Positions 11,484 through 14,506 are shown, numbered from the stretch's first letter. The stretch is DNA of 64,000 nucleotides from Candidatus Rokuibacteriota bacterium (GCA_005887895.1 VBPC01000272.1:5561-69560), one strand, 5' to 3'. Notes: generated by a model from the sequence alone, not told the origin. Numbers and translations: made by a program.

Positions 11484-12935
11484 ATGAGCTTCGCGCTCCT
11501 GCTCGTCCCCTCGCTCCTCAGCGCGCTGCTGGCGCTGGTCGTGCGCCCCTACCGCGCGGCAGTCGGCTGGGCGAACGCGGCGCTGTCGCTGGTGGCCGTG
11601 GCCGGCGCGATCACGCTGTGGGTCCGGGTGCTGCGCGGCGAGGTGCCGGTGGCCGGCGCCGACGGCCTCTTGCGGGCCGACGCGCTCTCCACGCTGCTGG
11701 CGCTGTGCGTGAGCGGCGTGGCGGCCCTGGCCGCCTGGCTCGGCCCCGGGCTCGGCGACGACGGCTGGGGCGCGCGCCAGGCGCGCCGCTTCCGCATCTT
11801 CGCCAACCTCTTCGCGTTCACGATGCTGTTCGCGGTGACGACCGACAACGTCGGCTTCATGTGGGTCGCGATCGAGGCGACCACCATCACCTCGGCCGTG
11901 CTCATCCCGCTCCACGCCAGCAAGGCTTCCGTCGAGGCCTCGTGGAAGTACGTCCTCATCGGCTCGGTCGGCATCGCGCTGGCCTTCGCCGGCACCGTGC
12001 TGGCCTACTTCGACTTCGTCACGCTGATCGGGCGGGAGGCGGTCGCGCTCAACTGGACGGTGCTGCAGGACGCGGCGCCCGCGCTCAACCCGCGCGTGAT
12101 CCGGCTGGCGTTCGTCTTCATCCTCATCGGATACGGCACCAAGGCCGGGCTGGCGCCCATGCACACCTGGCTCCCCGATGCCCACTCCGAGGCGCCGCCG
12201 GCGCTGAGCGCCATGATGTCGGGCGTGCTGCTGGCGGTGGCGCTCTACGCCGTCGTCCGCTGGCAGGCGGTCGTGCGGGTCACGGTAGGGACGGGCTTCG
12301 CCGAGGACGTCATCGTGCTGCTGGGGGTGCTGTCGCTGGCGATCGGCGCGCTGAGCCTGGTCGCCCAGCGCAGCTACAAGCGCCTGCTCGCCTACTCCAG
12401 CATCGAGCACACGGGGCTCATCTGCGTCGGTCTCGCCCTGGGACCGCTGGGCGTGTTCGCGGCCATGCTGCACCTGCTCAACCACAGCGTCGCCAAGTCG
12501 ATGATGTTCCTGCTGGCCGGCCGCGTGCTGCGCCGGTACGGTACCGCCGAGATCGAGGGCGTGTCCGGTCTGCTGCGGGTCATGCCGTGGACGGGCGGCT
12601 TCTTCGCGGCCGGCATGCTGGCGGTGATCGGGCTGCCGCCGTTCGGGATGTTCGTCTCGGAGTTCGCGCTGGTGCGGGCCGGCTTCGCGGCCGGGCGGCC
12701 CGTCCTCGTCGCGGTCGTGCTCATGCTGCTCGCCGTCGGCTTCGTCGGCGTCCTCGTACACCTCAACCGCATGCTCTACGGGCGGCCGCCCTCCACCGTG
12801 ACGCTCGGCGAGAGCAGCCGGTGGGCGCTGGTGCCGCTCGGCGGCTGCCTGGTGGCGCTGGTCGTGCTGGGCCTCACGCTGCCGGCCGCCATCGACGGCC
12901 TGCTCGTGCGCATCGTGGCGATCGTGGCGCCATGA
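11484..12935 (+). CDS. HyfF/HycQ/NuoN-like antiporter-type membrane subunit
   Basis: 483 aa. GYGTKAGLAPMHTWLPDAHSEAPPALSAMMSG is a NuoM/N-type motif. Confidence 0.85.
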   Translation: MSFALLLVPSLLSALLALVVRPYRAAVGWANAALSLVAVAGAITLWVRVLRGEVPVAGADGLLRADALSTLLALCVSGVAALAAWLGPGLGDDGWGARQARRFRIFANLFAFTMLFAVTTDNVGFMWVAIEATTITSAVLIPLHASKASVEASWKYVLIGSVGIALAFAGTVLAYFDFVTLIGREAVALNWTVLQDAAPALNPRVIRLAFVFILIGYGTKAGLAPMHTWLPDAHSEAPPALSAMMSGVLLAVALYAVVRWQAVVRVTVGTGFAEDVIVLLGVLSLAIGALSLVAQRSYKRLLAYSSIEHTGLICVGLALGPLGVFAAMLHLLNHSVAKSMMFLLAGRVLRRYGTAEIEGVSGLLRVMPWTGGFFAAGMLAVIGLPPFGMFVSEFALVRAGFAAGRPVLVAVVLMLLAVGFVGVLVHLNRMLYGRPPSTVTLGESSRWALVPLGGCLVALVVLGLTLPAAIDGLLVRIVAIVAP

Positions 12936-14506
12936 GCCTGCCGGACGCGCTGACGACGGCGCTGGCGGCCGCGGTGCCCGCCGCGCGCGACGTTCGGGTC
13001 GTGCGCGGGCGCGAGCTGCACTGCACGCTGCCGCCCGACGCGGTCCCGGCGCTGAGCCGGCTCCTCACCGGCGACCTCGGCGCCGAGCTGCGCCTGATGC
13101 TGGCGAGCGACCGGCGGGCCGAGCGCGGCGTGTTCGAAGCGCACTATCTCTTCGGGCGGGCGCGCGCCGACTGGTTCGTGCACGCCACCGCGCCGCTCGA
13201 CGCCGCCGCGCCGGCCGTGCGCTCGCTGGCCACGCGCCACTACCCGGCCTCGCGCTTCGAGCGGGAGATGGCCGATCTCTTCGGCATCGCCGCCGTGGGC
13301 CATCCCGATCCGCGCCCGCTCGTGCGCCACGGGTTCTGGCCGGCCGACTGGTTCCCGCTGCGCAAGGACGCGGGCCCTCGCGAGTTCCACGACGACGGCC
13401 AGCCCTTCCCGTTCCAGCAGGTGGGCGGCGAGGGCGTCTACGAGATCCCGGTGGGGCCGGTGCACGCCGGCGTGATCGAGCCGGGACACTTCCGGTTCAG
13501 CGTGCTGGGCGAGACGATCATCGACATGAAGGTGCGCCTCTACTTCACCCACAAGGGCACCGAGAAGCTGTTCGAGGGCCGCCGGCCGGCCGACGGCGTG
13601 CGCCTGGCCGAACGCGTCTCCGGCGACACGACGGTTGGCCACGCGCTGGCGTTCTGCCAGGCCGTGGAGGCGGCGGCCGGCGTGGCGGCGCCCGCCCGCG
13701 CGCGCTGGCTGCGCGTCGTGCTGCTCGAGCTCGAGCGCCTGTACAACCACGTCGGCGACGTCGGCATGATCCTCAACGACACCGGGTTCGCCGTCGCGCA
13801 TTCGCACTGCTTCCGGATCCGCGAGCGGCTCCTGCGGCTCAACAAGCGCGTGACCGGCAATCGCCTGCTGCGCGGCGGCCTCGTGCCGGGCGGCGTGACG
13901 ATGGAGGCGCCGGCCGGCGTCGACGTCGCCGGCGAAGTGGACGCCGCCGTGCGCGACTTCGACGAGATCGTCGGCCTCAGCCTCGGCAACACGCTGGTGG
14001 CCGATCGCCTCGACGGCACCGGGCGGTTGACCCTGCGCACCGCGCGCGACCACGGCGTGCTGGGCCCGGTCGCCCGCGCCTCCGGCATCGACGCCGACGT
14101 GCGCCGCGATCATCCGTTTGCCGCCTACGCCGAGCTGGCGCCACGCGTGGTGGTGCACGAGAGCGGCGACGCGCGGGCCCGCACGCTCGTGCGCGTCGAG
14201 GAAGCGCGCGAGTCGGCGCGGCTCATCCGCCGGGCGCTGGAGACGCTGCCGGCGGGACCGCTGGCCGTCGAGATCGATCGGCTGCCCGCCGGTGGGCCGG
14301 CGTTCTCGCTCGTGGAGGGCTGGCGCGGCGCGATCGTGCACTGGGTGCTGGCCGACGAGACCGGCGCGCTGGCGCGCGTGAAGGTGCTCGACCCGTCGTT
14401 CCTGAACTGGCCCGCGCTGTCCTATGCGCTGCTCACGAACATCGTTCCGGACTTTCCGCTGTGCAACAAGTCGTTCAATCAGTCGTACTCCGGCAACGAT
14501 CTCTAG
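12932..14506 (+). CDS. Fused NuoC-NuoD / HycE-like large subunit lacking the NiFe-binding cysteines
   Basis: 524 aa from ATG 12932, with an ATGA overlap. The N-terminal 30-kDa (NuoC-like) domain is followed by a 49-kDa/large-subunit domain (GPVHAGVIEPGHFRF). The expected E-R-x-C-G-x-C-x3-H motif reads ERVSGDTTVGH. The C-terminus reads DFPLCNKSFNQSYSGNDL, with no CxxC. Confidence 0.85.
   Translation: MSLPDALTTALAAAVPAARDVRVVRGRELHCTLPPDAVPALSRLLTGDLGAELRLMLASDRRAERGVFEAHYLFGRARADWFVHATAPLDAAAPAVRSLATRHYPASRFEREMADLFGIAAVGHPDPRPLVRHGFWPADWFPLRKDAGPREFHDDGQPFPFQQVGGEGVYEIPVGPVHAGVIEPGHFRFSVLGETIIDMKVRLYFTHKGTEKLFEGRRPADGVRLAERVSGDTTVGHALAFCQAVEAAAGVAAPARARWLRVVLLELERLYNHVGDVGMILNDTGFAVAHSHCFRIRERLLRLNKRVTGNRLLRGGLVPGGVTMEAPAGVDVAGEVDAAVRDFDEIVGLSLGNTLVADRLDGTGRLTLRTARDHGVLGPVARASGIDADVRRDHPFAAYAELAPRVVVHESGDARARTLVRVEEARESARLIRRALETLPAGPLAVEIDRLPAGGPAFSLVEGWRGAIVHWVLADETGALARVKVLDPSFLNWPALSYALLTNIVPDFPLCNKSFNQSYSGNDL

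Follow-up and report, generated by a model that had tools for sequence, protein, structure and literature searches.

A 64,000-nucleotide stretch of a Candidatus Rokuibacteriota genome (GCA_005887895.1, VBPC01000272.1:5561-69560), here called the window, carries a self-contained plus-strand operon of seven tightly packed genes behind a promoter with a palindromic putative operator. Gene calls were made on the identical ENA contig, and products were annotated by Pfam, NCBIfam and PDB searches. The operon opens with an ArsR-type regulator, continues with a NuoB/HycG-like small subunit and four membrane subunits, and ends with a HycE-like large subunit (12932-14506, 524 residues) that lacks the ligands of a NiFe site. 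This protein is very probably the large subunit of a membrane complex of the energy-converting hydrogenase-related (Ehr) kind, matching the mycobacterial Rv0081-Rv0087 type; the genome itself is Methylomirabilota/Rokubacteria-like. Ehr complexes, relatives of group 4 [NiFe]-hydrogenases without Ni/Fe-coordinating residues and of unknown function (PMC6349859, PMC10284858, PMC10432482), have been recognised for years by their missing CxxC motifs (PMC6349859, PMC10284858, PMC10432482, PMC7894505); examples come from Geobacter sulfurreducens (EhrA-S, GSU0739-45; PMC7894505), comammox Nitrospira (PMC10284858), Margulisbacteria (PMC6349859) and ammonia-oxidizing archaea (PMC10432482).

The large subunit was characterized by translation, Pfam and alignment to PDB sequences. 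Its ATG start codon overlaps the stop codon of the preceding HyfF-like gene. Pfam matches to Complex1_30kDa (residues 33-147) and Complex1_49kDa, together with a short NiFeSe_Hases match, establish a NuoC-NuoD fusion of the HycE/HyfG type, as the original prediction from the bare sequence had proposed. In a phmmer search of all PDB sequences, the top solved relative was Escherichia coli HycE (7z0s_E, E = 1.4e-71), far ahead of Nqo4 (3.7e-38), MbhL (1.8e-32) and NdhH; MbsL was also detectable. These similarities to HycE and MbhL, with a small subunit carrying the CxxC...C...GCPP pattern, place the complex among homologues of group 4 [NiFe]-hydrogenases, and the sequence indicates that the large subunit descends from one of theirs.

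Neither metal-binding motif that defines group 4 [NiFe]-hydrogenases is present. In place of the N-terminal RxCGxCxxxH, the protein reads RVSGDTTVGH, which aligns without gaps with RVCGICGFAH of HycE, RMCGICSFSH of MbhL and RTCGVCTYTH of the Desulfovibrio vulgaris hydrogenase. The complete L1 remnant, ERVSGDTTVGH, occupies residues 227-237 and plus-strand positions 13610-13642, exactly where it had been predicted. Cys1 is replaced by Ser230 and Cys2 by Thr233, and an aspartate, Asp232, has been gained. In place of the C-terminal DPCxxCxx(H/R), the protein ends NQSYSGNDL-stop. Here NQSYSGND aligns gaplessly with HycE DPCYSCTD, so that Cys3 corresponds to Ser518 and Cys4 to Gly521, while the terminal Arg has become Leu. 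This L2/L5 remnant with its stop codon, placed in register with HycE, spans 14450-14506 on the plus strand (DFPLCNKSFNQSYSGNDL-stop). The protein terminates one residue past the conserved Asp, at the position of the Arg at which the HycE endopeptidase cleaves, and thus has no C-terminal extension.

The ligands have not moved elsewhere in the protein. Alignment with HycE puts non-cysteine residues in register with all four, and the whole large subunit has four cysteines (31, 242, 293 and 511), the best conserved of which, Cys242, is kept in 51% of 103 Cys-less representatives described below; the Mycobacterium tuberculosis orthologue has none of the four. The lone C-terminal cysteine, Cys511, which the original prediction had singled out, aligns with an Ile of HycE and alternates between I, C and V over the family. 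We considered Cys511 or the other three cysteines as a displaced metal site and rejected the idea, since none of them is conserved. Because all four ligands are replaced (Ser230, Thr233, Ser518, Gly521), the large subunit cannot hold a NiFe(CN)2CO cofactor and, with the ligands gone, is very probably part of neither a hydrogenase nor a formate hydrogenlyase. As had been anticipated, maturation genes were not found nearby either: no HypA-F or HycI Pfam family was matched among approximately 55 open reading frames (ORFs) spanning the 64-kb window, and neither formate dehydrogenase nor HycB/HycF genes were found within it.

The nearest proteins to the large subunit come from Rokubacteria/Methylomirabilota metagenome-assembled genomes (MAGs). 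Scanning species-representative genomes yielded 80 loci with 64-88% identity from Rokuibacteriota/Methylomirabilota, Acidobacteriota, Binatia, Chloroflexota, one cyanobacterium and others, with the seven-gene order constant wherever the contig was long enough. The pattern ER[VI]SGD[TS][TSA][VI]GH was found in 81/81 loci, and the C-terminal 18-mer DFPLCNKSFNQSYSGNDL was identical in 68/81. All-against-all clustering of ORFs showed that only the seven operon genes are common to the 81 loci; LemA/TPM-like genes lie downstream of the operon in about 15. Single Rokubacteria MAGs can hold two full copies of the operon (L002/L003 in QHRW01; L043/L057 in CAWGVS01). An operon 76% identical to the Rokubacteria type also occurs on a contig labelled Nitrosotalea sp., an archaeon (L008, DATIWG010000006.1); this combination suggests mis-binning, or possibly recent transfer. 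Reviews do list Ehr in Nitrosotalea (PMC10432482).

To describe the wider family, we searched 1.84 billion cluster representatives with HMMER, which returned 1220 proteins at E<=1e-30. Among the best 150 of these, 121 were full length; 103 of them retain at most one of the four cysteines and 18 retain all four. In the Cys-less class (n=103), the replacement residues are themselves conserved. The Cys1 position is Ser in 68% (Ala in 17%) and is followed by Gly in 93%; the Asp232 position is Asp in 83%, while the NiFe-type sisters have Val or Ala there and Asp in 0/18. Ser or Thr occupies the Cys2 position in 66%, Ser the Cys3 position (Ser518) in 84%, and Gly the Cys4 position (Gly521) in 89%. 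The penultimate residue (Asp523) is Asp in 98% and the last is Leu in 71%, against Arg in 83% of the NiFe sisters. In the Cys-less and the NiFe class alike, conservation of 90% or more extends to second-shell residues, among them Glu183 in the beta1-beta2 loop, His207/Glu211, Arg261, Glu266/Glu268/Arg269/His273, Arg465-Gly466, Asp507 and Asp523. Since the replacement residues are near-invariant in 81 loci of several phyla, the pocket has been remodelled and then held under selection and has not decayed. By the same comparisons, the former active-site pocket is polar, conserved and, with Glu183 kept, proton-connected.

In a rough neighbour-joining tree, NiFe-type and Cys-less representatives were interleaved at 35-50% identity. 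The close homologues of the large subunit all share its Cys-less motifs, and relatives with a full NiFe site reach no more than 40-47% identity and diverge at exactly the ligand positions, in agreement with the original prediction. The nearest true [NiFe] relatives (for example P0127/P0271, from the Planctomycetota 'Ca. Wujingus', locus L086) share with the window the gene order HyfB-NuoH-HyfE-HyfF-large subunit, the absence of a C-terminal extension, the beta1-beta2 loop GPxHAGxIEPGHFRF and the DFPLxNKSF context. In contrast to the window protein, they retain the cysteine motifs as ERICGVCxxSH and ELCYSCxDR. The small subunit of these relatives carries a fusion to two CxxCxxCxxxC ferredoxin motifs and is encoded last, and no ArsR gene is present.

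The window operon is, by gene order and sequence, the syntenic counterpart of M. tuberculosis Rv0081-Rv0087. With the Rv0081 sequence as query, we retrieved an M. tuberculosis-complex contig (L084) and a Mycobacterium riyadhense locus (L082), both ordered ArsR, Oxidored_q6, Proton_antipo_M, NADHdh, a 220-residue protein without family assignment, Proton_antipo_M and Complex1_30kDa/49kDa. This is the order of the window (ArsR, then short NuoB-, HyfB-, NuoH-, HyfE-, HyfF- and NuoCD-like genes), and all seven window proteins are 37-62% identical to their M. tuberculosis-complex counterparts. The Rv0087 counterpart, 52% identical to the window large subunit, is likewise Cys-less, reading ERISGDTSAAH and ending NKSFNQSYAGNDL-stop; the two fall within one subclade of the tree. 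The M. tuberculosis small subunit, like that of the window, has four cysteines and no ferredoxin domain. The two loci differ in phylum, in operator sequence and in flanking genes, which in M. tuberculosis are Rv0079/Rv0080 upstream and Rv0088 downstream and in the window an LLM oxidoreductase upstream and collagen-like ORFs downstream. The window large subunit is also longer at its NuoC-like N-terminus (524 versus 491 residues), and control by DosR/MprA is known for M. tuberculosis only, where rv0082-rv0087 are up-regulated along with the DosR genes rv0079-rv0081 (PMC6901956). Rv0081-Rv0087, also listed under the gene names 'hycD/P/Q/E', has been counted as an EHR of undetermined function (PMC6728331) and elsewhere termed a putative [NiFe]-hydrogenase or formate hydrogenlyase (PMC6901956; bioRxiv 10.1101/465575). 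One M. tuberculosis-complex assembly (L085:9875-10724) has a NuoH-like gene cut to 74 residues that directly abuts an Rv0088-like gene; Rv0085-Rv0087 are thus deleted in that strain.

The small subunit (7300-7815, plus strand, 171 residues; Pfam Oxidored_q6) has one [4Fe-4S] site, predicted from Cys53, Cys56, Cys120 and Cys150, and no ferredoxin-like domain. It aligns without gaps with HycG (9.4e-42) and MbhJ, with CxxC...C...GCPP conserved, and its CNGC spacing is of the hydrogenase type rather than the tandem cysteines of complex I. The four cluster cysteines are invariant in 57/57 loci, mycobacteria included. A NuoI/HycF-like 2x[4Fe-4S] subunit left no sign in the gap-free operon, which has no space for one. 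Two CxxCxxCxxxC motifs are instead fused N-terminally to the small subunits of two more distant relatives, L086 and L087, and are missing from that of the window. The first approximately 17 residues of the window small subunit are loosely like the N-terminus of these fused forms, a likeness that is suggestive only.

Relatives of decreasing cofactor content form a series. The Planctomycetota locus L086 (44% identity) combines a NiFe-type large subunit with a 263-residue small subunit, in which two intact CxxCxxCxxxC motifs precede the NuoB domain, encoded last and without ArsR. 'Ca. Aquicultor' (L087, 40% identity) pairs a Cys-less large subunit with the same three-cluster fusion, again encoded last, with ArsR upstream. 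Locus L088 (47% identity) is Cys-less and has a long small subunit with degenerate ferredoxin motifs, encoded last; its contig ends upstream, on the side of ArsR. Locus L090 (44% identity) is Cys-less with a short small subunit of 175 residues, encoded last, ArsR being absent. Finally, the window and the mycobacteria are Cys-less with short small subunits of 160-171 residues that are encoded first, and ArsR is present. By this series, the window/mycobacterial subclade appears to have lost both the NiFe site and the ferredoxin relay, and it keeps a single cluster. The reverse of the window's situation occurs at L089:826-3258, where a large subunit with all four NiFe cysteines accompanies a small subunit without proximal-cluster ligands (DNAA for CxxC, GDPP for GCPP). 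At L088:7011-8807, the small-subunit gene is followed by one for an SdhA/FrdA-like flavoprotein (FAD_binding_2, Succ_DH_flav_C), which may act as a partner in that Cys-less lineage.

The membrane arm comprises four subunits encoded on the plus strand between those for the small and large subunits. The HyfB/HycC-like antiporter-like subunit (7829-9874, 681 residues; Pfam Proton_antipo_M) scores 689 bits against NCBIfam 'hydrogenase 4 subunit B' (cut-off 667) and matches HycC (2.8e-71) and MbhH (1.8e-52) in the PDB. Alignment to these shows conservation of the Glu in transmembrane helix (TM) 5, the Lys of TM7, the Lys of TM8, the His/Lys pair and the TM12 Glu. The NuoH/HycD-like membrane anchor and coupling subunit (9876-10817, 313 residues; Pfam NADHdh; HycD, 3.4e-46) has acidic residues E191, D198, E205, E211 and E216 in the TM5-6 loop region that are invariant in 68/68 loci. 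The HyfE-like subunit (10820-11476, 218 residues), NuoK-like in its C-terminal half, was assigned by NCBIfam ('hydrogenase 4 membrane subunit', 2e-26, below the cut-off) and by a weak Pfam Oxidored_q2 match over residues 131-216; sequence search found no PDB relative. The HyfF-like antiporter-like subunit (11484-12935, 483 residues; Pfam Proton_antipo_M) matches MbhH (2.8e-35) and MbsH (3.8e-34) and conserves the TM5 Glu, TM7 Lys, His/Lys and TM12 Glu, with Ala at the TM8 Lys position. The charged residues kept in the NuoH-like, HyfE-like and two antiporter-like subunits are those that serve proton or ion translocation in complex I, MBH, MBS and Mrp (PMC7684303, and established knowledge). Conservation across loci indicates strong purifying selection on the cluster, the coupling subunit and the pump subunits. 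Some relatives have a second, tandem HyfB-like gene between the HyfB- and NuoH-like genes (L008:4819-6867, L060:4797-6878, and also L009, L013, L020, L027 and L029).

The regulator gene (6950-7300, plus strand) encodes a 116-residue helix-turn-helix protein (Pfam HTH_5; NCBIfam ArsR/SmtB, 82 bits, cut-off 55) whose top PDB match, over its full length, is M. tuberculosis Rv0081 (6jmi, E = 5.4e-20), making it the Rv0081 counterpart. An ArsR gene lies immediately upstream of the NuoB-like gene in 48 loci. Directly upstream of the window's ArsR gene is a promoter-like site on the plus strand (6913-6942), TTGAAC and TATATT separated by an 18-nt spacer; one such site was found versus 0.0 expected from 50 shuffles. 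Since the -10-like hexamer ends just 7 nt upstream of the GTG start (6942-6950), the operon transcript may be leaderless. The spacer contains a perfect 16-bp palindrome, ATATGAATATTCATAT (6922-6937, read from the sequence), which stands out as AT-rich from a genome of 72% G+C. Most related loci have a similar AT-rich inverted repeat, following a TTGAC-like hexamer, ahead of the ArsR gene. The palindrome inside the promoter spacer, with these repeats, points to an autorepressed ArsR-type layout in which ATATGAATATTCATAT is the probable operator. Consistent with this, Rv0081 is reported to bind an inverted repeat upstream of its own operon and to repress it (bioRxiv 10.1101/465575).

Outside the operon, an F420-dependent LLM-class oxidoreductase (5978-6895, plus strand; TIGR03619, 182 bits, cut-off 167) is encoded directly upstream of the ArsR gene, where M. 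tuberculosis has an Rv0080-like Pyridox_ox_2 protein. By analogy with Fpo, F420H2 was considered as electron donor. The idea found no support beyond this adjacency, because, among related loci, only the two closest (L002 and L003) retain the LLM gene. Just downstream of the operon (14697-15711, plus strand) are overlapping ORFs with collagen-like Gly-x-y repeats (Pfam Collagen, 4e-15), a stretch in which the ENA-contig gene calls differ. An HdrD/GlpC-like protein with a CCG domain and a 4Fe-4S dicluster (36759-38081, plus strand) and a MoxR-type AAA ATPase with a VWA/CoxE partner (18441-20760, plus strand) are also encoded in the window, and related loci show no link of either to the operon.

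Collectively, these data match what has been used to recognise an Ehr: a group 4-related large subunit without Ni/Fe-coordinating residues (PMC6349859, PMC10284858), an operon with NuoB-, NuoH- and Mrp/antiporter-like subunits (Pfam, NCBIfam or PDB matches for all six structural genes) and agreement in synteny and sequence with a named Ehr, Rv0081-Rv0087 (PMC6728331). The original prediction, which saw the general Ehr pattern in the large subunit, is thereby sharpened to one operon type. To what it recorded can be added the ArsR-type repressor with its putative operator, a small subunit encoded first and without ferredoxin domain, the lack of a NuoI/HycF-like subunit and the conservation of the replacement residues. 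Like Ehr in general, which the literature places beside group 4f, the complex joins a group-4-type large subunit without CxxC to NuoH-like and Mrp/antiporter-like subunits. The other Ehr lineages retrieved here (L087, L088 and L090) differ in that the small-subunit gene follows that of the large subunit and the ArsR gene may be missing. E. coli formate hydrogenlyase (PDB 7z0s) provides the top solved relatives of four window subunits (HycE, HycG, HycD and HycC), and HycE is likewise a NuoC-NuoD fusion. Unlike the window complex, the E. coli enzyme has a NiFe site, a 32-residue cleavable C-terminal extension, HycF, HycB, FdhF and hyp/hycI genes, and lacks HyfE/HyfF-type subunits. Pyrococcus furiosus MBS (PDB 6u8y; PMC7684303) and complex I (NuoD/Nqo4) resemble the window complex in being hydrogenase-derived systems that gave up the NiFe site and kept the proximal cluster, the NuoH-type coupling subunit and the antiporter-like pumps.

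Our best overall explanation, which we consider probable, is an Ehr of the Rv0081-Rv0087 type. Redox-linked ion translocation is the likeliest of the functions considered; this mechanism, with a ferredoxin-type donor, a menaquinone-type acceptor and a proton relay, is more tentative, and we would not be surprised to see it fail. According to this scheme, a one-electron carrier such as ferredoxin would dock straight onto the NuoB-like cluster, exposed since the ferredoxin domain is missing. The electron would pass to, or in reverse from, an acceptor lodged in the polar pocket where NuoB, NuoD and NuoH meet, with menaquinone as leading candidate. Protonation changes in an Asp232/Glu183/Arg465 network could then reach the antiporter-like subunits along the acidic chain of NuoH, and the complex may be reversible. 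The ArsR-type autorepressor would keep expression off and, if M. tuberculosis is a guide, hypoxia or energy limitation would lift the repression.

Several points weigh against a redox-linked translocator of this kind. No conserved electron donor or acceptor gene was found beside the operon in the 80 loci. The quinone ligands of complex I are unmatched (Nqo4 His38 aligns with Ile182 and Tyr87 with Gly231), and a quinone would therefore need a different binding mode; quinone biosynthesis is reportedly missing from Riflemargulisbacteria that carry other Ehr complexes (PMC6349859). The ferredoxin relay has been deleted, which could be a sign that the complex no longer serves for electron throughput. 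An AlphaFold2 model of the large subunit, built from an alignment of 36 sequences 73-84% identical, had a mean confidence score (pLDDT) of 65 and fell below 50 in the pocket segments (147-208 and 488-524), and thus was not used for pocket geometry. A phmmer search found no Ehr structure among PDB sequences, and we know of no biochemical datum for any Ehr.

The main rival is a redox-independent, Mrp-like cation/proton antiporter, with the NuoB/NuoCD cap either structural or a redox/ligand sensor that gates transport. The stepwise loss of both the NiFe site and the 2x[4Fe-4S] relay would fit such a device, as would the lack of a conserved redox partner in cis, the proximity of the membrane subunits to those of Mrp and the extra HyfB copy in some relatives. 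Mrp antiporters, however, operate without NuoB, NuoD or NuoH homologues (PMC7684303). Moreover, no variation between phyla affects the four cluster cysteines, the acidic chain of NuoH or the residues of the pocket, which argues for a coupling site in use. We regard this rival as unlikely, though it deserves to be kept in view.

A further reading is comparably speculative: next to a lone [4Fe-4S] cluster and with no relay, the invariant polar pocket may represent a coupling or catalytic site of a new kind. Its candidate residues are Ser230-Gly-Asp232-Thr233...His237 and Ser518-Tyr-Ser-Gly521-Asn-Asp-Leu, with inherited Glu183, Arg465 and Asp523. One version is a redox-gated site for proton or ion loading that would power the antiporter modules with no conventional substrate; in another, oxygen ligands would bind an unrecognised substrate or metal.

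The proximal cluster might instead reduce polysulfide or another small oxidant in the vacated NiFe pocket, as in an MBS-like enzyme. Precedent exists in P. furiosus MBS, a solved NiFe-less descendant with a catalytic proximal cluster (PMC7684303), and both MbsL and MbsH are detectable relatives. MBS depends on a shortened loop in MbsJ, owing to which one Fe has no Cys ligand (PMC7684303), whereas CNGC here is gapless against HycG and MbhJ; the MBS pocket is hydrophobic with no proton path (PMC7684303), whereas Glu183 and a polar pocket are kept here. MBS also retains two of the four cysteines, three clusters and a three-Cys proximal cluster, none of which the window protein shares (by the features in PMC7684303). 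Such chemistry is accordingly improbable in our judgement.

A bona fide complex I/NDH-1 quinone reductase, with the large subunit a NuoD orthologue, is less credible still. The Complex1_49kDa/30kDa matches, the similarity to Nqo4 and the NCBI name 'NADH-quinone oxidoreductase subunit C' speak for it. Yet the protein scores 205 bits against NCBIfam NuoD, where the cut-off is 360, and HycE is far closer than any NuoD. Complex I has Tyr/His quinone ligands, tandem-Cys NuoB (PMC7684303) and many more subunits; in the window neither His38 nor Tyr87 has a counterpart, the CxxC of the small subunit is of the hydrogenase type, and NuoA, NuoI, NuoJ and NuoE-G genes are absent, with none for NuoI, NuoA or NuoJ in the gap-free operon.

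A genuine group 4 [NiFe]-hydrogenase or formate hydrogenlyase is what database names imply (JGI, 'Ni,Fe-hydrogenase III large subunit'; M. tuberculosis, 'HycE' and 'predicted formate hydrogenlyase'), as do the published terms for the M. tuberculosis locus cited above. HycE as top solved relative and the retained second-shell Glu183, Arg465 and Asp523 also speak for it. All four ligands are nonetheless replaced, in register with three solved hydrogenases, with no alternative conserved cysteine; maturation, formate dehydrogenase and HycB/HycF genes are lacking from the window; and true NiFe sisters differ at precisely the ligand positions. We give this possibility very little weight. A decaying relic without function, despite the loss of catalytic ligands and a cofactor domain, has virtually none, given intact and tightly packed reading frames, synteny and motifs conserved over several phyla, conserved replacement residues and paralogous copies kept within single MAGs (L002/L003, L043/L057).

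Ehr complexes are widespread and stand evolutionarily between hydrogenases and complex I. Loss of the cysteines will not surprise the specialist, and Ehr, including the M. tuberculosis locus, were already known; what is added is the cross-phylum correspondence with the M. tuberculosis operon, the conserved replacements (a gained Asp among them), the loss of the ferredoxin domain in apparent steps and a putative operator. The window alone does not reveal the substrate. It does provide a list of residues for mutagenesis (Asp232, Ser230, Ser518, Glu183, Arg465 and the four cluster cysteines) and a comparative series for studies of function: NiFe with three clusters, no NiFe with three clusters, a degenerate ferredoxin domain, and one cluster. 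The M. tuberculosis 'Hyc' locus now proves to be closely related and syntenic to loci of uncultured soil phyla (Rokubacteria/Methylomirabilota, Acidobacteriota, Binatia and Chloroflexi), all of them sharing one highly conserved pocket devoid of the cysteines, and annotation should be corrected, the Cys-less complexes of these phyla and of M. tuberculosis not being H2 enzymes. Should the remodelled pocket prove to be a new kind of site, Rv0082-Rv0087-type Ehr would represent a distinct class of complex-I-like energy converter, present in M. tuberculosis and in abundant soil phyla.

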